Assembly (NCBI GenBank): GCA_964641615.1
Contig: CAZXNH010000002.1
Coordinates: 62,519-126,518 of the forward strand
Length of the DNA: 64,000 nt
Origin: an uncultured Ectothiorhodospiraceae bacterium
GTDB lineage: Bacteria; Pseudomonadota; Gammaproteobacteria; J044
Reading direction: 5' to 3'
Of the stretch, positions 2,913-63,843 are shown in pieces (within the stretch, counting starts at the first letter, position 1; every line of letters starts with the position of its first letter). Below the pieces are notes generated by a model. It was not told the origin of the DNA. It was given only the letters and a program-made list of their open reading frames with translations, and did no database searches. The position numbers and the translations under genes are program-made.

Positions 2913-3728
2913 TTAGTAGGCGACTTCCTTTTCCAGCACGAACTCGACCCGACGATTCCTGGCCCGGTTCTCCGGGTTATCGTTGGGTGCGACTGGCGCA
3001 TAGTCGGCATAGCCACTGGCACTCATGCGCTCCGGGGCAACACCCCGCTCGATAAACCAGCGCAGCACCGAGGCAGCACGTGCCGTTGAAAGCTCCCAGT
3101 TAGAGGGATAACGACGACTGCGGATGGGCAGGTTGTCGGTATGGCCACGAATATTGATGTTGTATTCAGTGTAGCGCTCGAAGACCTTCATGACGTCCTC
3201 AAAGATGGGCTGTGCTGTTACATTCAGGTCTGCTGCACTGGTATTGAACAGGGCCGTGCCTCGAATCTGGATAATGATCTTTTCACCCTGGCGGTAGACA
3301 TCTACGTATTCACTGATGTCCTGGTCCTGGATGATCTGCTCGATCTCCTGAACCACCTTTTCTTCTCTCGGAGCAATACCCGTGGCCTCTTCAATGGTCT
3401 GCGGCGGGGATTCAATCTCAACTTCCTTCACCACCTCACGCACCACGTAGACCACATCCGGGCTGCCCAGAGAAGCCTGGATCGATCGCAGGGCGGCCTC
3501 GAAGCGCTCAACCTTTAATGAAGACATGGAGTAAAGCAGGATAAAGAACACCAGCAGCAACATCATGAGATCGGTAAAGGTCATGAGCCAGGCGCGGCTA
3601 TCCTGATCTTCGATGATTTCATCAACGGCCGTTTTCGGTGGATCTCGATAAACGACCCTGACCTCGGGCTCGACGACCTCATCTTCGGCCTTGTCTTTCA
3701 CAACCCTTTTCAGGTCATCGGTTTCCAC
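2913..3728 (-). CDS. motB: Flagellar motor stator protein MotB (OmpA-like C-terminal peptidoglycan-binding domain)
   Basis: Single N-terminal TM plus an OmpA-like domain (NINIRGHTDN...SNWELSTARAASVLRWF...NRRVEF). Immediately downstream of a MotA-like gene. Confidence 0.75.
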   Translation of the reverse strand: METDDLKRVVKDKAEDEVVEPEVRVVYRDPPKTAVDEIIEDQDSRAWLMTFTDLMMLLLVFFILLYSMSSLKVERFEAALRSIQASLGSPDVVYVVREVVKEVEIESPPQTIEEATGIAPREEKVVQEIEQIIQDQDISEYVDVYRQGEKIIIQIRGTALFNTSAADLNVTAQPIFEDVMKVFERYTEYNINIRGHTDNLPIRSRRYPSNWELSTARAASVLRWFIERGVAPERMSASGYADYAPVAPNDNPENRARNRRVEFVLEKEVAY

Positions 3729-4565
3729 TTACTTAGCGCCTCGTGCTGCGGCCTTTTTGGCAGAAGGCCGCCTGCTTTTACGGGCCTCGGCCTTCTGCGC
3801 ATTCCTGAAGGCATTAAAGCTCTTCCGCTCCGAGGCCGGCACAAAGGATGACAGACGCTCATAAAGGGTCAGCTGGTTATTGTCCTGCAGCAGGGCAATG
3901 GCACCTTCGTAAATGATCTCGAGATGCATCACCTCGGCCAGGGTGCGTGCCTTCAGCTTGCCCGCAATCGGCAGGAAGATCATGGTCGACAACAGGGAGC
4001 CATAGAAGGTCGTCAGCAGGGCCACCGACATGGCCGGGCCGATACTGGCAGGGTCGTTCAGGGTCGATAACATCTGGATCAGACCAATCAGGGTACCCAG
4101 CAGACCAAAGGCCGGGGCATAGGTCCCCATCTTGCGGAATACGTCCTGCACCTCGAAGTGACGTGACTTCAGGGCATCGATTTCGTTGCGCAGGATCTTG
4201 CGGATCAGCTCTTCGTCCGAGGCCTCGGCCACCAGGTTGATGGCGCGCTGCATAAAGGGGGAATCCGAACTGACCTCGGAGATGCGCACAATGCCCTGGT
4301 TGCGACTGATCTTGGCCAGGTCGAGCATCTGGCCAATAATATTTTCAGCCGTCTGCTTTTCCCGGGTAAAGACATACCAGGCACCCCGGAATGCGGATCT
4401 GACCTCTGAGAAGGGAAAGGTCAGCAGGGTGGCCGCTACCGTACCCCCCAGCACAATCATGAGCCCGGGCAGGTTGGCAAAATTGTGCATATCGCCACCG
4501 AGTATGATGGCGAGCAGTATCAGGGTGAGACCGGAGACGATCCCGATCAGCGACGTTTTATCCAT
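3729..4565 (-). CDS. motA: Flagellar motor stator protein MotA (MotA/TolQ/ExbB proton-channel family)
   Basis: Four-TM proton-channel family protein, adjacent to and co-oriented with a MotB-like gene. Confidence 0.75.
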   Translation of the reverse strand: MDKTSLIGIVSGLTLILLAIILGGDMHNFANLPGLMIVLGGTVAATLLTFPFSEVRSAFRGAWYVFTREKQTAENIIGQMLDLAKISRNQGIVRISEVSSDSPFMQRAINLVAEASDEELIRKILRNEIDALKSRHFEVQDVFRKMGTYAPAFGLLGTLIGLIQMLSTLNDPASIGPAMSVALLTTFYGSLLSTMIFLPIAGKLKARTLAEVMHLEIIYEGAIALLQDNNQLTLYERLSSFVPASERKSFNAFRNAQKAEARKSRRPSAKKAAARGAK

Positions 4566-4635
4566 GGAAAAACTCCCTCTATCTTCCCAGCATATCGACC
4601 ACTGTAACCGGGAATTTAGCGGCAGTGGGTCTGGA

Positions 4636-5211
4636 TCAGCCCGAATTCTTCATCAGCAGGGTATTAATGTGATGGTGATCAAGCCGCTTGCGTACCGCAT
4701 TGACCTCATCAAGATTGCCATAGGGCCCCAGCTGAACACGATGCCAGGTTGCCTTGTTGACCTTAACCGTCTGAATGCTGGCCTCGACACCCAAAAGGGC
4801 CAGGCGGGCCTTGAGGCGATCGGCTTCATCCAGGCTCTTGAAGGAACCGGCCTGCAGGCGGTAGCTGCCCGGCTCTTCGACTACCGGCTTGCTGGTCGTT
4901 GATTCTTTTGGCTGGCGGGCCGGCTCAACGACATAATCACCCTCGGGAATCACCACCTCAAGTTCAGGTAAAAGGGTATAGAAATCAAAGCGAGGCTTTT
5001 CTTCTTCAACTTCCTCGACCTGCTGGGTGCGGGTACGGATCTCTTCGCGAGATTGCTCTACCACGCTCGCAGCTCCGGAATCAGGCAGGTCCTTCAGCCA
5101 TATCAGCACACTCACAAACAGGCCGATGGCCAGGCCGGTGAATAACCAGACCCAGCCCGGTAATGGTTTCTTTTTACTGCTGCGCATCGGTTTCTTGTAA
5201 TCCCGCGTCAT
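4636..5211 (-). CDS. SPOR-domain protein (cell-division / septal peptidoglycan-binding)
   Basis: Basic N-terminus, one TM helix, an acidic/proline-rich linker and a C-terminal SPOR domain (YRLQAGSFKSLDEADRLKARLALLGVEASIQTV...WHRVQLGPYGNLDEV). Its ATG overlaps the argS stop by 1 nt, as in Pseudomonas-type synteny. Confidence 0.75.
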   Translation of the reverse strand: MTRDYKKPMRSSKKKPLPGWVWLFTGLAIGLFVSVLIWLKDLPDSGAASVVEQSREEIRTRTQQVEEVEEEKPRFDFYTLLPELEVVIPEGDYVVEPARQPKESTTSKPVVEEPGSYRLQAGSFKSLDEADRLKARLALLGVEASIQTVKVNKATWHRVQLGPYGNLDEVNAVRKRLDHHHINTLLMKNSG

Positions 5212-13631: not shown

Positions 13632-14063
13632 ATGAAAACCAAAGCACTAAGCCTTGCGGCACTATTCCTGCTCGTTGTAACTTCACTATTAAATGTAGCT
13701 ATTGCCAACGAACCTAAACAGGTTGTTATTCAGGTTAGCAGCAACGATCCCGTTACTCAGAAGATAGCGCTGAACAATGCCGTCAATCTTCAAAAGCTTT
13801 ATGGCATGGATAACGTTGTTGTTGAAATTGTCGCCTATGGCCCAGGCCTGAGCCTGATGACAAAGGCCAGCGATAATGCCAAGCGTGTTGAAAGCCTGGC
13901 CATGCAGAACATCAACTTTAGCGCCTGCATGAACACCATGAAGAACGTTGAAAAGAAGACCGGCAAAAAACCCATGCTATCGGAAGGCGTAAATACCACT
14001 CCTTCGGGTATTGCCCGTATTGTTGAACTTCAGGGTGAAGGTTACGCCTACGTACGCCCTTAA
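13632..14063 (+). CDS. Secreted DsrE/DsrF-like family protein (putative sulfur-relay/peroxiredoxin-like fold)
   Basis: Signal peptide MKTKALSLAALFLLVVTSLLNVAIA, then about 115 aa with a DsrE-like pattern (VVIQVSS..., VAYGPGL, a conserved Cys in SACMNT). Sits in a low-GC region. Confidence 0.4.
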   Translation: MKTKALSLAALFLLVVTSLLNVAIANEPKQVVIQVSSNDPVTQKIALNNAVNLQKLYGMDNVVVEIVAYGPGLSLMTKASDNAKRVESLAMQNINFSACMNTMKNVEKKTGKKPMLSEGVNTTPSGIARIVELQGEGYAYVRP

Positions 14064-14422
14064 GTACTACTTTCTGTTGCATGGCGAGGGATTGCCATAC
14101 AACAGTCATACCCAAACATGTTCTGATCCCCGCAAGAATTGATAACCAGTTAACAATATTTTTAAAACTCTTCTACTCTTGTTTGACGACAAACAATTCT
14201 TGTCCTATTTTTAATAGTGTTAAAGGCAACTCACTCGAAAGGGTGAAGACGCAAAGTCACCGGTCTAAGGGAAAATCCTATGATAGCGGGGCCGCCAGAA
14301 TCTCCGGGCATATGTCCATCTGCGGTTTCCCCTCTTCAACGAATTCAACCCTGATACCGATGCAATAACAATACGCGTCCTGCTTGCCTTTGTACTCAAC
14401 ACAAAACAAAAGGATGTTAAGG

Positions 14423-14722
14423 ATGAAACTGTCAAAGAGTATACGCACATTGCTGGCAGCGACAGGATTGCTGCTAATACAGGGAACTACTTCTGCTTCT
14501 GATTTATATGAAGGAGTTATTGCCTATAACAGTGGTGAATATGAGAAGGCCTTTGCCCTGTGGGAGCCTCTGGCCAAACAGGGTGATCATCGCGCACAGT
14601 ACAACATGGCCATGCTATATAGCAGCGGCAAGGGCGTTCCCCAAAGTGACATCGAGGCAACCAGATGGTACAAAGAAGCTGCGGCACAAGGTAACGAGTA
14701 TGCTGCTCTACACCTGAAATAA
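14423..14722 (+). CDS. Secreted Sel1-repeat (TPR-like) protein
   Basis: Signal peptide MKLSKSIRTLLAATGLLLIQGTTSA. Two Sel1-type repeats (YEKAFALWEPLAKQGDHRAQYNMAMLYSSGKGVPQSDIEATRWYKEAAAQGNEYA). An RBS (aagga) precedes the ATG at 14423. Confidence 0.6.
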   Translation: MKLSKSIRTLLAATGLLLIQGTTSASDLYEGVIAYNSGEYEKAFALWEPLAKQGDHRAQYNMAMLYSSGKGVPQSDIEATRWYKEAAAQGNEYAALHLK

Positions 14723-14778
14723 CAAAAACAACCTTGCCCCGGCTTTAGCCGGGGCCCGGGTATCAAAGGAGCAAAAAC

Positions 14779-15591
14779 ATGAACGTGATTTCAAAAGCCG
14801 TCGTTATTCTGATAATTGGCTTTTTCTCATCTGTGGGCCTGGCAAACAATGAAGAATTCCCAAATCGAAAGCTTTTTCCTGAAACCACACCTATAAGTCT
14901 CGATAAGTTAAAAGCCACAAAAAACGACACCATCATTATAGATGTACGCTCAGCCTATGAATTCGATACGCTTCATATCAAAGATGCGATAAATATTCCG
15001 CTAAATGCTTCCGACTTTACAAGCAGCCTTGAGAAGCTAAGAAAAACCAGCAACAAGCCCATCATCTTTTACTGTAACGGCAAGACCTGTAAGAAATCTT
15101 ATAAGGCAGCTCTAAAGGCTGTTAAGGCCAAGATCCCCTCAGTATTCGTTTTTGATGCTGGTATTTTTGACTGGGCCGAAGCATACCCGGAAGAAAGCAT
15201 TTTGCTTGGCAACCTTCTCAAGGATAAGGATCGACTAATTTCTTCAGCCGATCTTAAAGAACATATGCTTGATCATAAATCTTTTGTCAGGCAGGCAAAG
15301 TCGGACGATGTCATTATTCTCGACATACGTGACCCAGTACAACGAGACGGTCTACAGATTTTCGCCCATAGAGAAAACGTAGTACCTCTGGATAACGCCA
15401 AATTGCAAAAGTATGTAGACCAGGCAAAGGCCGAGAATAAAACCCTGATGATCTATGACGCGGTAGGTAAACAGGTACGCTGGTTACAGTACTACCTGGA
15501 GGATCAGCGCGCTTCTGATTATTACTTCATGAAGGGTGGTGCAGAAGCGCACTTTGAAGACTTTATTGCAAAGTATCGCAAGAAGCTTTAA
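14779..15591 (+). CDS. Secreted tandem rhodanese-domain sulfurtransferase (active first domain, second domain lacks the Cys)
   Basis: Signal peptide. Domain 1 carries the active-site loop YCNGKTCKKS after DVRSAYEFDTLHIKDAINIP. Domain 2 (ILDIRDP...MIYDAVGKQ) has no Cys. Confidence 0.7.
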   Translation: MNVISKAVVILIIGFFSSVGLANNEEFPNRKLFPETTPISLDKLKATKNDTIIIDVRSAYEFDTLHIKDAINIPLNASDFTSSLEKLRKTSNKPIIFYCNGKTCKKSYKAALKAVKAKIPSVFVFDAGIFDWAEAYPEESILLGNLLKDKDRLISSADLKEHMLDHKSFVRQAKSDDVIILDIRDPVQRDGLQIFAHRENVVPLDNAKLQKYVDQAKAENKTLMIYDAVGKQVRWLQYYLEDQRASDYYFMKGGAEAHFEDFIAKYRKKL

Positions 15592-15700
15592 TTAATATTA
15601 TTCATTGGGCTCCTTGAACACAGGGATGTGTTTTATTTTTGTTCTTTTTTAGATACAAGCATTTCGCCCCCTGGCTGTGCAGGACAGAGAGCGAAATGAT

Positions 15701-16036
15701 TTATTCAAATATCACTTTGAATTCAGCCTCTGCTGAAGACTTATCAATCTTCACCAGCATCTCCCCATAACCACTCTCAGTGGTGGGGTCAAAACCACAG
15801 GATCCACCGGCGCTGACTTCATTAAAGAAGACACTGATTTTTGCATGGATGGATTGCTCGTCCTCGGTAACAGTAAGTACGGAAACACTCAGGCTGCTGT
15901 GATCAATACTGCCACCACGCAAGCTACATTGCGCCAGCGGCAGTTGGCCTTCTGGCAACGCAGCTAATTCTTCCTTCAGCACCTGTTTGAAGGTGTCAGC
16001 GCCCCAGCTCTTTAAAGACTTCTCGAGAACAGTCAT
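15701..16036 (-). CDS. Hypothetical protein (111 aa), co-oriented immediately downstream of deaD
   Basis: ORF with moderately low GC and no motif I recognise. Start and stop are tightly packed against deaD. Confidence 0.35.
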   Translation of the reverse strand: MTVLEKSLKSWGADTFKQVLKEELAALPEGQLPLAQCSLRGGSIDHSSLSVSVLTVTEDEQSIHAKISVFFNEVSAGGSCGFDPTTESGYGEMLVKIDKSSAEAEFKVIFE

Positions 16037-50433: not shown

Positions 50434-51420
50434 GTGAACATGCACATTTGCACTTCCAGCCTGGGCGCTCTATGCATTCTGATCGGCATTTACCTGAATG
50501 CGGTATTCGCTGAGCCCCTGCCCCGTTGCCTATTCGTTTCTTCTTATCATCCCGGCTACGCCTGGTCAGATGGTGTAGAAAAGGGCCTGCGTGAAACTCT
50601 GGCCGGTCGTTGTGAGCTGGAACAATTTGATCTGGACACAAAGCGCATCAAGGACCCCGTACAGATCGAGAAAAAAATTACGGCTGTTCGCCGCCTTATT
50701 GAGTATTCAAGACCCGATGTAGTGATTACTGCAGATGACAATGCCGCCAAGTACCTGATTCAGCCCTATTACATCAATTCTGAAACGCCCTTTGTCTTTT
50801 GCGGTATCAACTGGTCAGCAGAAAATTATGGCTTCCCCGCCAGTAATGTGACCGGCATGATCGAGGTTGCCCCTATTAAACCTCTGATGGAATGGGCGCA
50901 ACGACTTGCGCCTCCTGCAAGGACAGCCACCTATATTGGCGCGGACACGCTGACAGAAAGGAAGAACTACGACCGGTACAAAGTTCTTGGGGAAAAAATG
51001 GGCATCGACATTACACCCCGCTTCGCTTCTACCAGTGCCAAATGGAAACAGCATTATATCGATGCTCAGCAATCAGACTTCGTCATAATGGGAAGCAACG
51101 CCGGCATCAATGACTGGCAGAGTGAAGCGCTTATCCAGTCACTGCCCGAACATACACAACGGCTGAGTATTACCGTGCATCAATGGATGATGCCTTACTC
51201 AGTCTTAGGATTTACCAAGCTCCCTGAAGAACAGGGCGTCTGGGCCGGGAAAACAGCCCTTGCTATTATTGAACAGGATATCAAACCCATTGATATCCCC
51301 GTTGTAGCCAATCGGCTATGGGATATCTGGATCAATTCACAACTGATCTCAGCAACCGGGATCGACCTGCCAGAAAGGCTTAAGCAAAAAGCAAAATTTA
51401 TGAGCGGGACTAGCCCATGA
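50434..51420 (+). CDS. Periplasmic substrate-binding-like protein (ABC_sub_bind/PF04392-like) upstream of a sensor GGDEF-EAL gene
   Basis: Signal peptide, about 300 aa with an alpha/beta periplasmic-binding-protein-like pattern. Its stop overlaps the start of the downstream GGDEF-EAL gene. Confidence 0.55.
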   Translation: MNMHICTSSLGALCILIGIYLNAVFAEPLPRCLFVSSYHPGYAWSDGVEKGLRETLAGRCELEQFDLDTKRIKDPVQIEKKITAVRRLIEYSRPDVVITADDNAAKYLIQPYYINSETPFVFCGINWSAENYGFPASNVTGMIEVAPIKPLMEWAQRLAPPARTATYIGADTLTERKNYDRYKVLGEKMGIDITPRFASTSAKWKQHYIDAQQSDFVIMGSNAGINDWQSEALIQSLPEHTQRLSITVHQWMMPYSVLGFTKLPEEQGVWAGKTALAIIEQDIKPIDIPVVANRLWDIWINSQLISATGIDLPERLKQKAKFMSGTSP

Positions 51421-54080
51421 CGCGAACCGAGTGGGGCTTCACGATTCTATTCACCCTGCTTTTTGCAGTTATTAGTGCCATTGTTTCGGGACATCTTACT
51501 CTTCAGGCAAGAACCCAGAGCTTTCAGTCAGATGCCCAGCGCATACAGGCCTCCCTGCTTGAGTCACTGGAATCCGCCCGTGGCCTGAGTGTCGCAATGG
51601 GGACACTCTACCGCACTCATGAACATATCGACTCCTCATCGTTTAGCTTTATTGCCACCGATATTCTTGATGCGAACACGGCACTCAGCACAATCACTTA
51701 TTCACCATGGCTAGAAGCCGGTCGTAAAGAGGCATTTGTTACAGCGCAGCGTGATGAAGGCTTTCCTACGTTCAGCATACAAACCCAGAAAGATTCAGAT
51801 GCCCAGACGTATTTCCTGCCATTACAGTTTATTGAGCCGTTTGATCCATTAAGTGCCCGATTCATGGGAGAAGATCTGTTTGGTAGAAAAGAGATTCAAC
51901 AGGACATCATTCAATCCATAGAGAGCAATGAATCCCGACTAGTACTTTTCAACTCACTGATGGACCATGATAACCAGCTTGCACTGATACACCCTGTTTA
52001 TTCAGGCATGGCATTACCTTCCAGTAAAGATATGCGCCTGCTTCACGCAAGGGGCCTGCTACTCTTTACGTTCAGTATCGACCAATGGGCACAGGGGCAG
52101 AACCTGACCCCGGACACAAAACTCTCACTCAATTACTGTGAAGATGAAGACGCAGAACTAACGCTAACTACCATGGAAAATTCAGGCTCTTCAGAATCCT
52201 CATTATTAAGACTCAATGAGAGCCTCGACGTCCCAACATTTCCCATTCGCATTCATATGGAAAAGGGGCTTGGATTCTCGGAGTTATCTCGTTCACCCGT
52301 CCCATTAGCAGTCATAGTCGCTACAGTCCTCGGGCTGATTTTTTCCCAGCTGATTATTAGCCGCAGGAGAATCAAGCTAAATGAGCAGGCCACAACCCTC
52401 GAGTTACAGAACATGCGGCGCCATGCCGAGACCACGCTTCAGTCTATTGGGGATGGCGTCATTACCGTGGACTCTTACCTGATTATTCGAAGCGTCAACT
52501 CAACAGCAGAAAAACTGCTCTGCAAAACAAGTGAAGAACTGGTCGGCTCCCCGGCAAACAGTGTTATCAAGCTCATCGATGAAAAAAGCGGCAAACCCCT
52601 CGGCCTCTTTAGTTCACGTGAGCACGATATTTCTCGAAACCACATTATTCTCTCTCGTTCAGGCAATACCGAACTTCCCGTCGAAATCGACATTCGTAAC
52701 CTGCATGGTAATCACGAAGAAGACATGGGTCAGGTTATTGTTCTACGGGATGTCAGCACAGAAAGAGAGCTCAGCAGGGAGCTTCGTTATCAGGCTACAC
52801 ATGACCTGCTTACCGGCCTGATGAACCGTTATGCCTTTGACCAGGAATTGCAGGCCGCACTTAAGTCTTCTCATCGCAATGGTTCGCATCATGTCCTGTG
52901 CTATCTCGATCTTGACCAGTTCAAACTAATTAACGATACCTGTGGCCACATGGCTGGAGATGAGGTTCTTAAACAGGTTACTTCCGTGATACACAATCAG
53001 CTCAGATCACAGGACATGTTTGCCAGGCTGGGCGGTGACGAGTTCGGAATCCTTCTGAGTAACTGTCCGCTTGATAAGGCCCAGGAAATCGCCGAACGGA
53101 TCAGATGCTCTATTCATGATTTTCGTTTTCCCTGGGAAGAAAAGGTTTTTGATCTGCGTGTAAGCATCGGCCTGGTACCCATCACCGATAACGCAGAAAG
53201 CATGACTGAACTGTTATCTGCTGCCGATGTTGCCTGTTACACTGCTAAAGATCGCGGCAGAGATCAGATATATACCTATCAGAGTGATGATGAATCTATC
53301 TCTGAAAGGCATGGGCAGATGCAATGGCTACCAATACTCCAGGATGCCCTAAGAGAAAATCATTTCACATTAAACCTGCAACCCATTCTCCCAATCTCCA
53401 GCAACAAGCTGCCCCGGATATATGAATTCCTGATCAGGCTAAATCACCCTGATAACACGCCCAGCCTTCCAGGAAGCTTTTTACCCGCTGCTGAACGCTA
53501 TGACCTGATGCGTGAAATTGATACCTGGGTTATTTATCACTGCTTTGAACTGATTCATTCCTACAGGCTGCCAGATAATGTCTGTTTCTCGATCAACCTG
53601 TCTGGCCAGTCTCTGACCGATCCAATGCTGGTTACCCGAATTCTGCAGGCTAATGAGGCTTACCCGGTTGACCCTTCCCGCATTTATTTTGAAATCACTG
53701 AAACCTCGGCGATAACCAGCCTCGCGGCGACCACTGAATTAATCAACAGGCTACGTGCACTGGACTATCGCTTTGCGCTGGATGACTTCGGTTCCGGCTT
53801 CAGCTCATATTCTTATCTGAGCAAGCTACCAGTAGACCTGTTAAAGATTGACGGACAGTTTGTCCGGGATATTAATGAGAATAAAATTCACCATACCCTT
53901 GTTAAAGGCATCCGCGAAATTGCCGAGGTCCTGAACGTGGCAACCATAGCCGAGTTTGTCGAATCGCAGGAAATTGTTGAATCAATCGATAAGCTGGGTA
54001 TTGAATATATGCAGGGTTACCATTGTGGCCGTCCGGACTCAGCAAAAACTATACTCGAAAATATCTCTGTCACTGAATAA
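51417..54080 (+). CDS. Membrane-anchored sensor GGDEF-EAL protein: periplasmic CHASE-like domain, TM helix, PAS, GGDEF, EAL
   Basis: N-terminal TM helix, a periplasmic domain of about 280 aa, a second TM helix, PAS, GGDEF ([12 protein letters not shown]) and EAL ([37 protein letters not shown]). Confidence 0.9.
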
Positions 54081-55599: not shown

Positions 55600-56217
55600 A
55601 TGAAGACACGTCTGCTCCTTGCCCTTTTCCTCACCCTGGCAGTCAGCCAGGTTCAGGCAGCCCCTTATTACTACGGCAGTCCAGGCCACTATCCTTCACT
55701 GCCTAATTATCAGCAGGAAACCCCTGCGGACCTGCTCGAAGACGGCATAGCACGCCTGCAGGCCTTTATTGAGCAAAAGGGCATCAACGATCCTGAAATA
55801 CTTACGGCCTTCCTCAACGAACAGATCGCTCCCTTCTTCGATTTTGACCGCATGGCCCAGATGGTAGGTGGTCGTTACTACCAGCAACTGGGTCCTACCG
55901 AACGCGCCCTGTTCAAGAGCCGTCTGCAGACCATGTTCTTCTCGGCACTGGGTCGCAACCTGGGCGCCTATTCCAGTCCCAAACCCCGTGTCGATTTCAT
56001 GCGCCCTCGCCAGCGTGGCTATAACGAGATCGAGGTGGCTGCACGCATCCTGCCCGCTAATGGCTACCCGGTGCGCCTGGTGTTCCGCTTTGCCAACGGC
56101 AAGGAAGGCTGGAAAGTCTATGATGTCTCGTCCAACGGTCAGAGCGCGGTGCTTTACTACCGAAAATACGTCATGGAGCAAATTCGCCGTTATGGCCCAA
56201 GGGCCCTGCTGAACTGA
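55600..56217 (+). CDS. MlaC/Ttg2D-family periplasmic phospholipid-binding protein homolog
   Basis: Signal peptide MKTRLLLALFLTLAVSQVQA and a Ttg2D-like pattern (IAPFFDFDRMAQMVGGRYYQQL...RLQTMFFSALGRNL...VYDVSSNGQSAVLYYRKYV). A GGAGGA RBS precedes it. Confidence 0.7.
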   Translation: MKTRLLLALFLTLAVSQVQAAPYYYGSPGHYPSLPNYQQETPADLLEDGIARLQAFIEQKGINDPEILTAFLNEQIAPFFDFDRMAQMVGGRYYQQLGPTERALFKSRLQTMFFSALGRNLGAYSSPKPRVDFMRPRQRGYNEIEVAARILPANGYPVRLVFRFANGKEGWKVYDVSSNGQSAVLYYRKYVMEQIRRYGPRALLN

Positions 56218-56286
56218 TTACTCAACCCCTGTCCTCGGACAGGGGTTTTTTGTCTGTACATCATCTATTAAACCGGGAGCTGCGGC

Positions 56287-59200
56287 ATGCGCCTCTTGTC
56301 CATTGCCTACTTACTTTTCAGCCTGATCCTGCCTGTCCATGCCACTGAACTCAATATCCCCGACTCACTGGCGCCCTGGCAGGGCTGGGTACTCTTCCCG
56401 CATGAAGATATTCACTGCCTGCATGAACATAATACGAATAAGCCCAGGATCTGTGCCTGGCCCGACCAGCTAATCCTGGACCTGGGCCAGACCGAGGGCC
56501 AGTTCGAACAGAACTGGGAGGTATATACCGAGTCCTGGATAAGGCTGCCAGGCTCAGGTCGGTACTGGCCCCAGGAGGTTATGGTCAATGATCAGCCAGC
56601 TAGCGTTGTCTCGCGCAAAGGGCTGCCTGCACTTCATCTGAGCAAGGGGCAATACCGGATCAGTGGCAAACTGTTCTGGGACCGGATGCCGGAGCAGTTA
56701 GGCATCCCACCGGAAACCGGGCTGATTAGTCTGCAGATCAATGGAAAGTCGATCAGTAACCCAAACATCTCGCAGCGTGGCCAGCTATGGCTGCAAAACC
56801 AGGAGCAACAGGAGCGCGCTGAAGATAGTAACAGCCTGGATGTACAGGTCTTCCGGCTGGTTGAGGATGGTTTGCCACAGAAGGTCACGACCCAGATCGA
56901 TCTCACCATATCCGGCAAGACCCGGGAAATACGTCTTGAAAACATGTTACCTGAGGGCTTTACGGCATTACGCCTGACCTCCCAGCTACCCGCCAAGCTC
57001 AACGATGACGATAGTCTGCAGGTCCAGCTACGCCCCGGCCGCTGGACCATCAGCATCCAGGCGCGTTCGGACCAGGAAATCAATCCGATCGTACTGCAGG
57101 AGCATGCCGAACCCTGGCCCGAGCAGGAAGTCTGGGTATTCCAGGCCAGGCAGGACCTGCGCCAGGTCGAACTGACCGGCCTGACCCGCATAGATCCGCG
57201 CCAGACACGACTACCGCCCCAGTGGCAACAACTGCCCGCCTTTCGTGTACTGCCCGGCGAGGGCATGGGATTCAAGCTCATCCGCCGCGGCGCCGAAAAG
57301 ACCTTCCAGGATCAGCTCTCACTTCAGCGTCAGCTCTGGCTAGACTTCAATGGCATGGGCTACACCCTGCAGGACAATATCAACGGACAGGTGCGCAATA
57401 CCTGGCGCCTGTCGACGCAAAGTGACCTAAAACTTGGCCAGGTCAAGATCAATAATCAGCCCCAGTTTATTACCCGCCTGCCAGGCGACGCACAGGACGG
57501 CATAGAAATACGTCGTGGCAACCTGAACCTGCAGGCCGACAGCCGTTATACACAGGACCTCAAGGACCTGCCCGCCAACGGCTGGAACCTGGACTTCCAG
57601 TCAGTCGAGGCCACCCTGCACCTGCCGCCGGGCTGGCGCCTGTTCTCGGCCACCGGCGTCGATAATGTTCCCCGTACCTGGGTACAGCGCTGGTCCTTGC
57701 TCGATATCTTCCTGGTCCTGATTGCCGCTATCGCCAGCGCCCGCCTGTTTGGCCCGGTCTGGGGAGGCGTGGTCTTACTGACCCTGACCCTGAGCTGGCA
57801 TGAACCCGGCGCCCCCCAGTACAGCTGGCTGAACCTGCTGGCCGCCATTGCCCTGATTCGCCTGTTACCCAGTGGCAAGATTCGCCGCCTGCTGCAGATT
57901 TATCGTGGCTTCGCCCTCATCCTCATTATCCTTATCGGTCTGCCCTTCATCGTGAACGAAGTTCGCACTGGTATTTACCCGCAACTGGAAAACCCCTGGT
58001 CGGTAAGCTATGCCAGCCCGGTACGCAGTCTGCCCAGCTCGGTTGCCCAGGTCGCCGAGGATGTCGCCATGGAGGCTGGCGTGGTTGAAAAGTCCATCTC
58101 CAGGTCCGAACCAAAATCTTATTACCGTAACAAACAGAGCCTGGATGAGATCGATCCCAATGCACTGGTACAGACCGGCCCTGGCCTGCCGGACTGGAAA
58201 TGGAACAGCATTCCGCTGCGCTGGAATGGCCCGGTCGCCCAGGGTCAGGAAATGCACCTGGCGCTGATCCCGCCACTGGCCGTCAGCGCCATCAAGATGA
58301 TCCTGTCATTACTCCTGGTGGTTATGGCCTGGCGTCTTTCCGACACCGGCAAGCTGCGCCTGCCCAGGCTCAATGGCACACATGTCGCCATCCTGCTGGC
58401 ACCGCTGCTGGTAACAGGACTGGTCGACAAGCCTGCGCATGCCGGACAGTGGCCATCACCCGAGATTCTCGAACAGCTTGAACAACGGCTTTTGCGCGCC
58501 GACCGCTGTTTACCGGAGTGCGCCCAGATTGCCAACGCACAGCTCGACCTGGATGAAAACGTACTGACGCTCAAGCTTGAGGTCCACGCCGACACCGACG
58601 TTGCCATTCCGGTACCCGGGCATGCCATGGGCTGGACACCGGCCCTGGTGGAGATGGACGGTCAGCCTGCCGGCCTATTGTATCGCTCTGCCCAGGATGT
58701 GCTCTGGATACCTGCCAGCGCTGGGGTGCACCATCTCGTCCTCGCCGCTCCACTGCCTCCGGGTGACCGGCACCAGGTACACTTCCCCCTCAAACCCAAG
58801 CGCATCGATGTTGCCGCTGAGGGCTGGACCGTGGTGGGCCTGCTCGATGACGGCAGGATGGAGCCCAGCCTGGAGCTGATCCGACAGCAGACCAGCAATG
58901 GTGGTGATGCAAAACCGGATGAGATTCAGCCCACCCCCCTGCCCGGATTCGCACAATTACGCCGCACCCTGCACCTGGGACTGGACTGGCATGTCAGTAC
59001 CACGGTGATACGGGCCACCCCGGCAGACAGTTCCTTTATCCTTGAACTGCCCCTGCTTGATGGAGAGTCAGTAACCACGCCCGGCGTACAGGTTGAAGAT
59101 GGCTATGTGCAGGTCAGCATGCCGCCGGGAGAGAGACAGTTCAGCTGGGAATCCCGACTCGAAAAACAGGAACAGATACGCCTGGCCGCCTCGCCATCTC

Positions 59201-60354
59201 TGCAGCCAGGGCAAACCTCCTGGATCGAGACCTGGCAGCTTGATGTCAGCCCGGTATGGCATGTCCAGTTCACGGGCATTCCCGTGATTCACCAGGCAGA
59301 TGCCTCCGGGCAATGGCTGCCAGAATGGCGCCCCTGGCCCGGTGAAGAAGTGCTGGTTAAGGTGATTCGCCCCGAGGGGGTTGTGGGCCAGACCCTGACC
59401 ATCGATCACAGCAAGCTGACCTCAACACCGGGCAAACGATCCTCGGAACACAGCCTGGAACTGAGCCTGCGTAGCAGCCAGGGCGGCCAGCATGTGCTTG
59501 GTTTACCTGAAGATGCCGTGCTGCAGGAGGCGACTATCGACGGCCGCAGCCACAACCTGAATATCGAGCAGGGCAAGCTAGTCCTGCCCATAGAACCCGG
59601 CAGCCACAAGGTCAGGCTCACCTGGCGACAGGAGGCTGGCCATGCCACCTGGTTTAACACTCCATCTGTCTACCTGGGTACGCCGGCCGTGAACACCAAT
59701 CTCCTGGTCAAACAGGGCACAGATCGCTGGGTGCTATTTACCGGTGGCCCGCGCCTCGGCCCCGCCGTGCTGTTCTGGGGCATAGTCCTGGTGCTTGTCC
59801 TGATCAGCCTGGGCCTTGGCCTGATCAAGCTTACACCGCTGAAGAGCTGGCAGTGGTTCCTGCTGTTGATCGGGCTGTCACAGACACCGGTATGGCTGGG
59901 GCTGGTCGTCGTCGGCTGGCTGCTAATCCTCGGTGCACGTAATCGCCTGGAGACGCCCATCGACCCGGGGATACATAACGCCATGCAACTGGGCATTGCC
60001 CTGTTTACCCTGATTGCCATTACCTCGCTGTTCATTGCCGTCAAACAGGGCCTGCTTGGCCTGCCCGAGATGCAGATCTCAGGCAATGGCTCTAGTGCCA
60101 GCCAGCTAAAGTGGTACCTGGACCGTACTGATGGACAGATGCCCGAGGCCTGGATAATGTCCCTGCCACTACTGGCCTATCGTCTTCTGATGCTGGCCTG
60201 GGCGCTGTGGCTGGCCTTTTCACTACTTAACTGGTTACGCTGGGGCTGGCAGTCAATGAATGTTGGTGGGCTCTGGCACAACATCCCAAAAAAGCCACGC
60301 AAAACCCGGGGCTCTCGGAGGGCAAAAAAAGATGATGCAGAAAACGTGGAATAA
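56287..60354 (+). CDS. Uncharacterised giant (1355 aa) polytopic membrane protein with large periplasmic domains
   Basis: Signal peptide, then about 450 aa periplasmic, a TM cluster (about residues 470-570), about 600 aa periplasmic, a C-terminal cluster of 5-6 TM helices, and a Lys/Arg-rich tail. No motif I recognise. Confidence 0.55.
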   Translation: MRLLSIAYLLFSLILPVHATELNIPDSLAPWQGWVLFPHEDIHCLHEHNTNKPRICAWPDQLILDLGQTEGQFEQNWEVYTESWIRLPGSGRYWPQEVMVNDQPASVVSRKGLPALHLSKGQYRISGKLFWDRMPEQLGIPPETGLISLQINGKSISNPNISQRGQLWLQNQEQQERAEDSNSLDVQVFRLVEDGLPQKVTTQIDLTISGKTREIRLENMLPEGFTALRLTSQLPAKLNDDDSLQVQLRPGRWTISIQARSDQEINPIVLQEHAEPWPEQEVWVFQARQDLRQVELTGLTRIDPRQTRLPPQWQQLPAFRVLPGEGMGFKLIRRGAEKTFQDQLSLQRQLWLDFNGMGYTLQDNINGQVRNTWRLSTQSDLKLGQVKINNQPQFITRLPGDAQDGIEIRRGNLNLQADSRYTQDLKDLPANGWNLDFQSVEATLHLPPGWRLFSATGVDNVPRTWVQRWSLLDIFLVLIAAIASARLFGPVWGGVVLLTLTLSWHEPGAPQYSWLNLLAAIALIRLLPSGKIRRLLQIYRGFALILIILIGLPFIVNEVRTGIYPQLENPWSVSYASPVRSLPSSVAQVAEDVAMEAGVVEKSISRSEPKSYYRNKQSLDEIDPNALVQTGPGLPDWKWNSIPLRWNGPVAQGQEMHLALIPPLAVSAIKMILSLLLVVMAWRLSDTGKLRLPRLNGTHVAILLAPLLVTGLVDKPAHAGQWPSPEILEQLEQRLLRADRCLPECAQIANAQLDLDENVLTLKLEVHADTDVAIPVPGHAMGWTPALVEMDGQPAGLLYRSAQDVLWIPASAGVHHLVLAAPLPPGDRHQVHFPLKPKRIDVAAEGWTVVGLLDDGRMEPSLELIRQQTSNGGDAKPDEIQPTPLPGFAQLRRTLHLGLDWHVSTTVIRATPADSSFILELPLLDGESVTTPGVQVEDGYVQVSMPPGERQFSWESRLEKQEQIRLAASPSLQPGQTSWIETWQLDVSPVWHVQFTGIPVIHQADASGQWLPEWRPWPGEEVLVKVIRPEGVVGQTLTIDHSKLTSTPGKRSSEHSLELSLRSSQGGQHVLGLPEDAVLQEATIDGRSHNLNIEQGKLVLPIEPGSHKVRLTWRQEAGHATWFNTPSVYLGTPAVNTNLLVKQGTDRWVLFTGGPRLGPAVLFWGIVLVLVLISLGLGLIKLTPLKSWQWFLLLIGLSQTPVWLGLVVVGWLLILGARNRLETPIDPGIHNAMQLGIALFTLIAITSLFIAVKQGLLGLPEMQISGNGSSASQLKWYLDRTDGQMPEAWIMSLPLLAYRLLMLAWALWLAFSLLNWLRWGWQSMNVGGLWHNIPKKPRKTRGSRRAKKDDAENVE

Positions 60355-60889
60355 CTATCTGGCAGGGCTGTTCCTGCTATGCCTGCCGCTTTCAGCCTGG
60401 CCCTGGTCTCAGTGCGAGACCTCGCAACAAATCGTACATAACCAGTTGCAGGCTGCAGTACAGACGAAAGGGGTGGCCGGTGGATGCAGTCTCGTAAACA
60501 TCGATGTTGCCATAGGCCCTCGCCATGGTTCGCCGCTACGAATGACCCTGCGTGGCAGCGATCCACTGATGCACATGGAATTTACCGACCTGGACCGCAA
60601 CCGACAGCCCGAGCTGCTGCTGATCACGCGCAACGCGGGTTCCGGTAGTTATGGCGGTGCCACACTCATCATTAATGAAGGCGAAGAACTCAAGCCCATA
60701 GCCCTGCCTGATGTAGATAGCGAGGCACAGCCCGGATACCGGGGGCATGACCGAATCTTCGCTTATCGCGATGTCCTGATCCGCGAATACCCCGTCTTTG
60801 GTGAAAAAGATCCAAACTGCTGTCCCAGAGGAGGATTCAGGGAACTGGTTTATCGCTTCGACGGCAGTCAGTTTGTCCTTGAAAAGTGA
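60332..60889 (+). CDS. Hypothetical secreted protein (about 185 aa), translationally overlapping the giant membrane protein gene
   Basis: Signal peptide MMQKTWNNYLAGLFLLCLPLSAWP, four Cys residues, Gly-rich segment (ITRNAGSGSYGGATLII). The ATG at 60332 overlaps the upstream stop by 23 nt. Confidence 0.5.
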   Translation: MMQKTWNNYLAGLFLLCLPLSAWPWSQCETSQQIVHNQLQAAVQTKGVAGGCSLVNIDVAIGPRHGSPLRMTLRGSDPLMHMEFTDLDRNRQPELLLITRNAGSGSYGGATLIINEGEELKPIALPDVDSEAQPGYRGHDRIFAYRDVLIREYPVFGEKDPNCCPRGGFRELVYRFDGSQFVLEK

Positions 60890-61000: not shown

Positions 61001-62860
61001 CTATCCCTGTTTCTGTAGCCAGGCTTCAAGATCATATTTTCCAATCGGCTTACTGATAAAATAACCCTGCAATTTATCCACGCTCATCTGATCCAGCAGG
61101 TCCAGAGTCGACTGGTCTTCCACGCCTTCTGCCACGACCTGGCAATCGAGATTATGACCCAGCTCAATAACCGTCTTAACAACGGCCCGATCGGTCTGAT
61201 CTGTACACATATCGGAAATAAAGCTTCGATCAATCTTCAGTGCATCCACCGGTAGTTTCTTCAGGTAATTCAGGGAAGAAAAGCCGGTTCCAAAATCATC
61301 GATCGCAATCTGTACGCCGAGCTCACTGAGCGCACTCAGTATCTTCCCTGCTCGGACAAGGTCCTGCATCAATGCCGTTTCTGTTATCTCGAGCTGGACC
61401 TTTTCGGCAGCGACACCATGCATCTGTAAAAGTGCCTGTATATCATCAGGCAGAGAAAGATTTTGAATACTGTATACAGAAAGATTCACACTGACACCGA
61501 AGTCATACCCCTGCTTGTTCCAGCGAGCCAGGTCCTTCAAGGACTGATCCAGTATTTGCATGGTCAGAACATTGATAAGCCCCATTTGCTCTGCCATCGA
61601 TATAAATTCATCCGGTGGTATCCCACCAAGCTCGGGGTGATCCCAACGCGCAAGCGCTTCTACATAGGCTAAATCATGTGATGACGTATCCACAACAGGC
61701 TGATAGGCCAGGTGAATATTCTGGTTTTTAACAGTATCACGCAGGTCACTCATCAGGCGCAGACGACGCACAGTATGTTTATTCTGTTCAGGGTCATAGA
61801 GTGCAAAACCGGATTGAGATTGCTTCGCCTGGTACATTGCAATATCAGCATATTTCATAAGATCATCAGCTTCCTGTGCATGTTCCGGAAAGATGCTGAT
61901 ACCGATGCTCGCCTTACTCTCTGTAGTGATGTTGTCAATAACAAACGGCTTACTCATCGCATACAGGATACGGTTAGCACATAATTCTGCACCCTTATAA
62001 TCTGTATGCGGCAATAATACCGCGAACTCATCTCCTCCAAGGCGCGCTATTGAGTCATTGAGTCGCACTGACTCTTTCAGGCGCACACTCACAACCTTTA
62101 ACAACTTGTCTCCAAACTGGTGTCCAAGAGTGTCATTGATTTCCTTGAAGCGATCCAGGTCAATCAGAAACAAGGCAAAACTCTGCTGGTATCTTTTTGC
62201 ATCGAATAGAATCCGCTCTATACGATCATTGAGCAATGTGCGATTTGGTAACCCGGTTAACGTGTCATGCAGGGCAAGATGCTGAAGTTGCAGGTTTTTC
62301 TTATCCAGCTCACGCGAGATCTTGGAGCTCAGGATGAGGCCTATCCAGACTGCAACCCACAGGATTACAAATCCTGAAGTGACCAGGCGAAGCTTGAGTG
62401 TTGATGCAATATCTGAATCGCCAGTACTGGCCGGTTTGAGCATGACGAGCTCATACTGTACATCTGGCAATGGGCTGACTGCCCAGTAATACTGCCTATC
62501 GGATAACTCAATTAAACTGTGATGATCTGCTGAAATCTCTTTCAGCCTTTCCAGAAGCACATCATAGGCAAATTCTGCTTCACCCGAACGATAGAGCAAC
62601 TCACCATCTTTTTGTATCAACAGAATAGAATCTTGCCCAAAGAACCTCTGTTGCAAGCGATCAAGATAAGCCTGGGTATCCCGCTGATTGTCCGCCAGTG
62701 TAATTTGCTGGGAGATGTTCCCTGAAAATCGCGTCAGTACCTCGGTTAACTGCTCATTTCGACTATCTAAAAGCTGACGATACGCAAGCACGCCAAAGAC
62801 AATCTGTGCGAGTATAGTGACCCCTAAGATAGATAGCAGTATCTGCTTATTGAGCGTCAT
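61001..62860 (-). CDS. Membrane sensor GGDEF-EAL protein (periplasmic domain between two TM helices)
   Basis: TM helices at about residues 8-28 and 160-180. GGDEF (RLGGDEFAVLL). EAL motifs (LEITETAL, DDFGTGFSSLNYL, KIDRSFISD, EGVED). Confidence 0.9.
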   Translation of the reverse strand: MTLNKQILLSILGVTILAQIVFGVLAYRQLLDSRNEQLTEVLTRFSGNISQQITLADNQRDTQAYLDRLQQRFFGQDSILLIQKDGELLYRSGEAEFAYDVLLERLKEISADHHSLIELSDRQYYWAVSPLPDVQYELVMLKPASTGDSDIASTLKLRLVTSGFVILWVAVWIGLILSSKISRELDKKNLQLQHLALHDTLTGLPNRTLLNDRIERILFDAKRYQQSFALFLIDLDRFKEINDTLGHQFGDKLLKVVSVRLKESVRLNDSIARLGGDEFAVLLPHTDYKGAELCANRILYAMSKPFVIDNITTESKASIGISIFPEHAQEADDLMKYADIAMYQAKQSQSGFALYDPEQNKHTVRRLRLMSDLRDTVKNQNIHLAYQPVVDTSSHDLAYVEALARWDHPELGGIPPDEFISMAEQMGLINVLTMQILDQSLKDLARWNKQGYDFGVSVNLSVYSIQNLSLPDDIQALLQMHGVAAEKVQLEITETALMQDLVRAGKILSALSELGVQIAIDDFGTGFSSLNYLKKLPVDALKIDRSFISDMCTDQTDRAVVKTVIELGHNLDCQVVAEGVEDQSTLDLLDQMSVDKLQGYFISKPIGKYDLEAWLQKQG

Positions 62861-63504: not shown

Positions 63505-63843
63505 TTAATGAACACTACCGAATGAAAGGTCCAGGGAATCTCCCGGTTCTTCAATACCCAATAACTGGCAGCCCTGATGGATCGGACCACCTGGGAAAAG
63601 TTCATACAGATGCTTCTTGCCTCCCTGCTCCTCAAATTGTTCCTGCAATGCCTGTGTCAGCTCTCGTCCGGATGAGTCGTCATCCTCGGCCACGAACTGG
63701 AAGATAATCTTTAACACACCCCAGTGTTCTGCAGTGAGGTCGATACCGGCTGCTTCGGCTCGACTCACAACACCTTGCTTATCGATTTCAGGCTTTGGTT
63801 CCTTGGTGTTATCGACACCCCATTCATTAATATCAGCGTTCAC
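63505..63843 (-). CDS. TusE/DsrC/DsvC-family protein with a noncanonical C-terminus (CysB-position Cys present; terminal GLPKPxGC replaced by an acidic ...DLSFGSVH tail)
   Basis: AEHWGVLKIIFQFV...KKHLYELFPGGPIHQGCQLLGIEEPGDSLDLSFGSVH. Compare TusE ...[27 protein letters not shown]. Confidence 0.65.
   Translation of the reverse strand: MNADINEWGVDNTKEPKPEIDKQGVVSRAEAAGIDLTAEHWGVLKIIFQFVAEDDDSSGRELTQALQEQFEEQGGKKHLYELFPGGPIHQGCQLLGIEEPGDSLDLSFGSVH

Follow-up and report, generated by a model that had tools for sequence, protein, structure and literature searches.

A duplicated inner-membrane protein of a widespread undescribed family, accompanied in one narrow clade by an MlaC-family paralogue and a PliI-fold protein

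The window analysed here, a 64,000-nucleotide stretch of DNA from an uncultured Ectothiorhodospiraceae bacterium, carries three adjacent genes, A, B and C, whose predicted envelope products can be set beside several described systems. For B, a 1355-residue polytopic inner-membrane protein, the closest likenesses lie in fold or layout. They are Ost1/ribophorin I, a non-catalytic oligosaccharyltransferase subunit; the M1 aminopeptidases (ERAP1/2, LTA4H, APN and tricorn factor F3); and membrane proteins of the RND/MMPL and LptFG/MacB types, which are pseudo-dimeric exporters with a large periplasmic domain per half. Gene A belongs with MlaC/Ttg2D (PF05494, including the HpnM subgroup), and MlaC paralogues such as HpnM have been proposed to serve non-Mla transporters (PMC12324291). 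Gene C is best compared with the inhibitor PliI (PF16743; PDB 3OD9/4PJ2). More distant comparisons for gene C are the immunity proteins Tsi1 and X-Tfi. PliI-Ah has an exposed loop whose S104 enters the active site of the lysozyme, and Tsi1 and X-Tfi use a topologically equivalent loop against other peptidoglycan hydrolases (PMC10933484).

An earlier note, made from the letters of this DNA, had described three co-oriented and tightly spaced genes. The open reading frame (ORF) calls confirm this, with a gap of 69 bp between A and B and an overlap of 23 nt between B and C. The elements of the locus are:

55600-56217, + strand: gene A, ORF call, 205 amino acids (aa), MlaC-family
56224-56257, + strand: GC-rich terminator-like hairpin, a 10-bp stem with a 4-nt loop (56224-56247) and then a T-run
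56275-56279, + strand: ribosome-binding site GGGAG of gene B, 7 nt 5' of the ATG, read from the sequence
56287-60354, + strand: gene B, ORF call, 1355 aa, polytopic inner-membrane protein
60317-60321, + strand: ribosome-binding site GGAGG of gene C, within the 3' end of B, read from the sequence
60332-60889, + strand: gene C, 185 aa, secreted, PliI fold, start at ATG 60332

The longest ORF for gene C begins at 60260. We set its start downstream, at ATG 60332, because the homologues start MM(Q/K)K and this ATG has a GGAGG 10 nt ahead of it. Translation of C is coupled to that of B. On balance, the likelier account is that three envelope genes have come to lie side by side in one lineage and do not make up a conserved three-component system. 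In this account, A would be a secreted, monocistron-like MlaC-family paralogue closed by a conserved terminator-like hairpin, B a duplicated inner-membrane protein that elsewhere is a stand-alone gene, and C a clade-specific periplasmic add-on of PliI fold, coupled to the end of B.

The distribution of B carries most of this argument. The family to which B belongs is widespread and undescribed, and its members are inner-membrane proteins of ~1350 aa. At least 1430 homologues were found, mostly full length and at ~45% identity, and all named entries among them are annotated "hypothetical protein" save one, which is misnamed. The family comprises 2487 clusters at 50% identity (E<=1e-3), 1423 of them at E<=1e-30. 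A survey of species genomes that used the motif QTGPGLPxW as search pattern placed relatives of B in at least 584 species-representative genomes. Carriers include Methylococcales, Chromatiales, Ectothiorhodospiraceae, Thiomargarita/Beggiatoa-type bacteria and Mariprofundaceae, as well as Zobellella, Oceanisphaera, Oceanimonas and some metagenome-assembled genomes of Myxococcota and Desulfuromonadales. Searches with the single sequence, with a 30-member profile and with 30 members scanned singly gave for B itself no Pfam or NCBIfam match at E<=1 and none in PADLOC or among PDB sequences; the 30 members returned only scattered single matches at E>=0.018. Among the Pfam and NCBIfam models without a match are those of RND/MMPL, AsmA/TamB, MCE, LptF/G, FtsX/MacB, GT-C and DUF2207. 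A literature search on ribophorin-like bacterial proteins and DUF2207 found nothing relevant to B. A defence role was considered for B and rejected, there being no PADLOC match.

Matches of 630-750 aa to the C-terminal half of B were considered as ancestral single-module genes. They are better read as contig-edge fragments: their lengths spread continuously and some begin inside conserved motifs. In one relative (L083, 3961-8057), B was called as two ORFs of 106 and 1240 aa, and tblastn matches extend over both, so that this split is probably a frameshift or assembly error and not natural.

We compared the neighbourhood of B across 80 loci from other species that carry it. Searched by tblastn, none of the 80 shows a gene resembling A or C within 8 kb of B, and hidden Markov models (HMMs) of the A and C families, run against six-frame ORFs over the same distance, gave no match at E<=0.01. 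Clustering of ORFs within 6 kb of B detected no partner conserved beyond genus- or family-level synteny. When the two nearest neighbours on each side were also scanned with Pfam, the commonest were a Mur ligase (7 loci) and OpuAC, methyltransferase and MCP genes (4 loci each). Of 68 loci, 24 have a divergent gene as the first one upstream of B, and of 67 loci, 30 have a convergent gene as the first one downstream; the two arrangements coincide in 10 of 57 loci, where B is therefore monocistronic. In general, B is clearly independent of A and C.

The full trio recurs only in close relatives (L091, L083, L086 and L081), whose B proteins are 96%, 58%, 55% and 54% identical to that of the window; the B-C pair recurs in three more (L088-L090). 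Where the contig is long enough, these loci also share rluE and a fructosamine kinase gene upstream, or DsrC genes downstream. Because the flanking genes are syntenic too, adjacency within the clade is indistinguishable from plain local synteny. In a further relative (L082, B 48% identical), B is flanked by PtsP and aldehyde dehydrogenase genes. The three-gene unit is thus limited to one narrow clade, and its co-conservation across genomes, one half of the test that the earlier note had set, fails outside it.

The DsrC-family genes just downstream of B-C are often paired across the clade (L081 5375-5704, L083 8693-9469, L088 2073-2846, L089 4760-5586) and suggest a sulfur-oxidising gammaproteobacterium. 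The window copy (63505-63843, - strand) ends in SFGSVH, seemingly without the usual C-terminal Cys. On the upstream side, the closest relative (L091, 3786-3796) has a sigma-54 activator gene directly followed by rluE. In the window, two extra genes lie between these (50434-54080), encoding an ABC_sub_bind-like periplasmic protein and a CHASE-PAS-GGDEF-EAL protein, at a lower GC content of 0.48-0.50; the difference looks like a recent insertion or deletion.

Gene A is a secreted periplasmic MlaC-family paralogue, as its sequence matches indicate, and a putative lipid-binding protein. It scores 85 bits against Pfam MlaC (cut-off 26, E 6.7e-24, model positions 19-161 of 166) and matches solved MlaC structures over aa ~40-200 (E 2.5e-10 to 3e-6). 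Its N-terminus, MKTRLLLALFLTLAVSQVQA followed by AP, reads by eye as a signal peptide of aa ~1-20 with the boundary between VQA and AP. The equivalog models tell a different story from the family model: A reaches 36.3 bits against MlaC NF011697 (cut-off 195) and 40.4 bits against HpnM TIGR03481 (cut-off 160.1). These scores, far under both cut-offs, mark A as a paralogue that is neither named protein. Like MlaC, A is over the family cut-off and has a signal peptide; unlike MlaC and HpnM, it has no MlaFEDB, MlaA or HpnN-type partner nearby, since a Pfam scan of the 40 other ORFs of the window found no MlaD, E, F, B or A. An orphan MlaC homologue had been proposed in the earlier note, and this holds. 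A also represents a tiny subfamily: in a search of 5.8 billion proteins its family came to 19 clusters, and that of C to 9. A-like proteins at 39% identity are not located near B.

In two loci (L084 7001-12799, L085 1528-4873), this 39%-identity paralogue adjoins a DUF2721 gene and a MoxR-DUF58 operon, and neither Mla genes nor B. In L084 a TgpA (transglutaminase) gene continues the operon; the L085 sequence breaks off within the gene at the DUF58 position.

The hairpin between the stop codon of A and the start codon of B folds with -20.5 kcal/mol (z -4.5), and none of 200 shuffled sequences folds as well. Equivalent A-B hairpins of different sequence occur in L086, L083 and L081, at -17.6 to -23.8 kcal/mol. 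Hairpin and B start are ~25-40 nt apart, with the ribosome-binding site inside this space; a scan and inspection of the 39 nt that could hold a promoter found no convincing -35/-10 pair. Given this short spacing and the lack of a recognisable promoter in it, one transcript probably covers A and B-C, and in this clade A may be made in excess and B-C by read-through. Such a transcript would tie the genes together in transcription, but argues only weakly for a common function. Control of B by envelope stress or sigma-54 was also considered and rejected: the sequence upstream of B in 70 loci was not enriched over background in sigma-E-like or sigma-54-like promoter patterns.

From the orphan MlaC homologue beside a giant membrane protein, the earlier note had suggested an envelope system for trafficking lipids or hydrophobic substrates. 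In such a system, B would be the inner-membrane partner that loads or unloads the shuttle A in place of MlaFEDB, and C would be an accessory. Several observations agree with it. A is a true MlaC-family protein with no Mla partner among the 40 ORFs scanned; every A homologue at >=65% identity sits directly upstream of B; the order of binding protein, hairpin and membrane protein, with read-through probable, is like that of operons in which a binding protein is overproduced; and HpnM is a proposed precedent for MlaC paralogues that serve non-Mla transporters (PMC12324291). The wider comparison nevertheless makes this proposal unlikely. B is distributed far more widely (at least 584 species, 2487 clusters) than A (19 clusters) or C (9 clusters), and an MlaC-like or C-like ORF accompanies it at none of the 80 other loci. 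The A-like proteins at 39% identity stand away from B, and synteny within the clade extends to the unrelated rluE, kinase and DsrC genes. No fold of a known lipid transporter was among the matches listed for B, and C resolves to an inhibitor fold of PliI type, unrelated to lipids. A dedicated three-gene lipid-transport system is therefore not supported.

To describe B itself, the order of its elements was taken from hydropathy and from an AlphaFold2 (AF2) model of residues 156-1355, built from a 62-sequence alignment (predicted local distance difference test (pLDDT) 82.3, predicted TM-score (pTM) 0.70). The protein reads as two successive modules, N and C, with transmembrane (TM) helices numbered within each:

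aa 1-20: signal peptide, from hydropathy
56347-57681, + strand: N-module periplasmic all-beta region, aa 21-465, with conserved Cys44 and Cys56; AF2 strands from aa 156
57682-57975, + strand: N-module helix bundle, aa 466-563, from hydropathy, AF2 helices and conservation
aa 564-620: variable loop, low AF2 confidence
58147-58269, + strand: N-module periplasmic beta-hairpin, aa 621-661, with the conserved QTGPGLPxW motif
58270-58425, + strand: TM5 (aa 662-685), a basic cytoplasmic loop, then connector TM6 (aa 697-713)
58429-59751, + strand: C-module periplasmic all-beta region, aa 715-1155, with conserved Cys741 and Cys745
59752-60261, + strand: C-module bundle, hairpin and TM5', from hydropathy, AF2 and conservation
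60262-60351, + strand: variable basic C-terminal tail, aa 1326-1355, low pLDDT

Within the N-module bundle, a short helix-loop-helix presents the conserved tip W504-H505-E506-P-G-A-P510. Its counterpart in the C-module bundle (aa 1156-1257) has the tip S-Q1199-T-P, with Q1199 invariant, and is followed by the hairpin at aa 1258-1294 (PEMQ..GNGSS..WYxDR) and by TM5' at aa 1295-1325. TM6 ends in PAHA followed by GQ, resembling a signal peptide, and brings the chain back to the periplasm. In each module, helices 1, 3 and 5 are followed by clusters of basic residues, and the tail has such a cluster as well. By the positive-inside rule, and with a Cys pair opening each beta region, the tail is inferred to be cytoplasmic, and the beta regions and hairpins of the two modules to be periplasmic. 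The layout given in the earlier note stands as regards the signal peptide, the TM clusters, the basic tail and the lack of a known family. Its single periplasmic region of ~600 aa does not: the stretch between the TM clusters starts with a periplasmic loop of ~100 aa (564-661), which is followed by two helices and then by a periplasmic domain of ~440 aa (715-1155).

Conservation runs the full length of the protein and is uneven. Measured as major-residue frequency, it is highest in TM5' (0.85) and reaches 0.69-0.73 in the hairpins; the bundles and the membrane-proximal beta subdomain are also highly conserved. The signal peptide, the connector helix TM6 (0.36) and the tail are least conserved.

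The two beta regions are related by sequence. An hhalign comparison of aa 20-465 with aa 715-1155 gave a probability of 90.6% and E 1.3e-6 over 359 columns, with a score of 57 against no more than 19 for the controls (one reversed and ten column-shuffled). A single-sequence query with the C-module matched about one third of full-length relatives in two or more stretches. Together, these results identify B as a tandem duplication of one module, made up of an export signal, a Cys pair, ~440 aa of beta-sandwiches, a helix bundle, a periplasmic hairpin and a final TM helix. The connector TM6 would link the modules in such a way that they have the same orientation.

At the level of fold, the beta arms of B are of a known type, resembling Ost1/ribophorin I and the N-domain of M1 aminopeptidases. 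Like Ost1, B has tandem beta-sandwiches followed by a membrane helix; unlike Ost1, it is bacterial and internally duplicated, has about eleven helices instead of one and has no oligosaccharyltransferase partner nearby. The structural alignment with Ost1 gave 10-11% identity and TM-scores of ~0.2, and Pfam Ribophorin_I (PF04597) did not match B even at E<=1, so the likeness, seen in a model, is best described as a shared fold type, with homology not demonstrated. With the M1 aminopeptidases B shares only the N-terminal accessory beta fold. It lacks their thermolysin-like catalytic domain and has no conserved HEXXH; a check for the M1 hallmarks (the HEXXH-(18)-E zinc site and the GXMEN motif) was negative, with no Peptidase_M1 match. 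The sequence HEDIH at aa 39-43 (56401-56415) fits the HEXXH pattern of zinc proteases and could have pointed to a metalloprotease. It is absent from the family consensus, and its presence in the window protein is probably fortuitous.

The membrane part is more isolated. No RND, MCE, AsmA/TamB, LptFG, MacB or GT-C structure was among the matches listed for the fold of B, and none of those listed is a solved structural relative of its membrane core. Thus neither sequence nor fold places B with AsmA/TamB, RND/MMPL, MCE or the adhesins. The resemblance to RND/MMPL proteins and to LptFG- and MacB-type permease pairs would be one of analogy, in a pseudo-dimeric membrane core with one large periplasmic domain per half. 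Unlike in these, the periplasmic domains of B are all-beta and precede each helix bundle instead of being inserted between helices, and no ATPase or adaptor partner is conserved beside it.

We suggest that B could be an autonomous pseudo-dimeric machine, in which a fixed helix core would pass or present an envelope substrate while the two beta-sandwich arms hold it. This reading follows from the conservation peak at the membrane-periplasm interface and from the absence of a conserved partner. A transporter- or channel-like role is offered tentatively, as a possibility short of an even chance. Certain points weigh against the account developed here. The transporter-like role is argued from architecture and conservation only; a sequence comparison of the helix parts of the N- and C-modules gave no significant similarity, so that a duplication of the membrane part is deduced from the same order of elements; and within the clade A always adjoins B, which, with the probable shared transcript, leaves room for a functional link.

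Alternatively, B may be a non-catalytic, non-transporting periplasmic scaffold or holder anchored by its helices, which by analogy with Ost1/ribophorin I would aid a partner encoded elsewhere. Two thirds of the protein consists of the beta-sandwich arms, and no catalytic motif is conserved (HEDIH included), both in keeping with such a role. The helix core and the membrane-adjacent hairpins are, however, the most conserved parts, which would be unusual for a mere anchor; no partner gene is conserved near B, and the similarity to Ost1 is as low as given above. We consider the scaffold improbable, and a passive anchor is disfavoured because of the full-length conservation, its peak at the interface and the polar-tipped helical hairpins in both halves.

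A bolder version of the autonomous-machine reading, which we rate as quite improbable, is that the B family consists of unrecognised pseudo-symmetric inner-membrane machines that work without an ATPase partner, and that this clade has recruited an MlaC-like shuttle and a PliI-like protein to them. If so, each half of B would pair a ribophorin-I-like arm with a five-helix unit bearing a polar-tipped helical hairpin, and the clade would have an Mla-independent route for the traffic of lipids or other hydrophobic molecules.

What is new here is the B protein family, which has no described relative, and not a mechanism; A and C are ordinary members or variants of known families. The B family holds thousands of sequences in methanotrophs, sulfur oxidisers, iron oxidisers and some Aeromonadaceae, and is in no domain database. 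Conserved over its full length, duplicated, usually stand-alone and exposed to the periplasm, B offers a well-defined target in the search for a missing envelope function of environmentally important Gammaproteobacteria. The resemblance in fold to Ost1/ribophorin I may, in addition, be relevant to how that accessory subunit arose in eukaryotes.

Gene C encodes a secreted, Cys-containing protein, as the earlier note had said. It matches PliI PF16743 below the cut-off (19.7 against 27 bits); three more distant homologues carry a precomputed match to the same family, and a profile of the C family matches the PliI-Ah structure 3od9 with E 2.1e-6. C has the PliI fold and retains the SGSY motif, in this loop:

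60638-60655, + strand: loop G103-S-G-S-Y-G108 of gene C, invariant in the C family and aligned with AGSGSY of PliI-Ah (HMM, 3od9)

S104 of PliI-Ah presumably falls within this SGSY stretch, a motif that the paper describing the inhibitory loop does not print. At 185 aa, C is longer than the crystal chain of PliI, which has 122 residues, and carries additional strands at its N-terminus. It differs further in an invariant DPNCCP motif and in the overlap of its gene with the 3' end of a giant membrane-protein gene. C is best described as a divergent PliI-fold protein, and it is probably an inhibitor of a peptidoglycan hydrolase.

That B and C form a cell-wall module, in which B would act on or monitor peptidoglycan or another glycan from the inner membrane and C would protect from or regulate a peptidoglycan hydrolase at the same site, agrees with the PliI fold and SGSY motif of C, with the inhibition of peptidoglycan hydrolases by PliI, Tsi1 and X-Tfi through an equivalent loop (PMC10933484), with the coupling of the two genes (at all C loci checked, L081, L083 and L088-L091, C follows B or a cut B-like ORF) and with the Mur ligase-domain (murein peptide ligase) gene that is the commonest upstream neighbour of B, in seven Methylococcaceae loci, but is very improbable, since C is limited to one clade, the Mur ligase adjacency occurs in a single family and may be plain synteny, neither a domain nor a motif for glycan binding or hydrolysis is recognisable in B, and PliI-type inhibitors usually act alone against foreign lysozymes.

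The remaining scanned ORFs of the window are, by Pfam, ordinary chromosomal genes (glyQS, priA, xerC, dapF, motAB-like and others). A row of MotA/ExbB-like, MotB/OmpA-like and SPOR-domain genes occupies 2913-5211 on the - strand. Three GGDEF-EAL proteins are encoded at 28193-30619 (+), 51417-54080 (+) and 61001-62860 (-), of which one carries CHASE and PAS domains and another several PAS domains. At 14215-14299 on the + strand, in a low-GC stretch (0.446 over 14001-16000), there is a c-di-GMP-I riboswitch (RF01051, 66.7 bits, E 7e-11), and a rhodanese-domain ORF (14779-15591) begins ~480 nt downstream of it. The three GGDEF-EAL proteins and the riboswitch suggest heavy cyclic di-GMP signalling in the organism.

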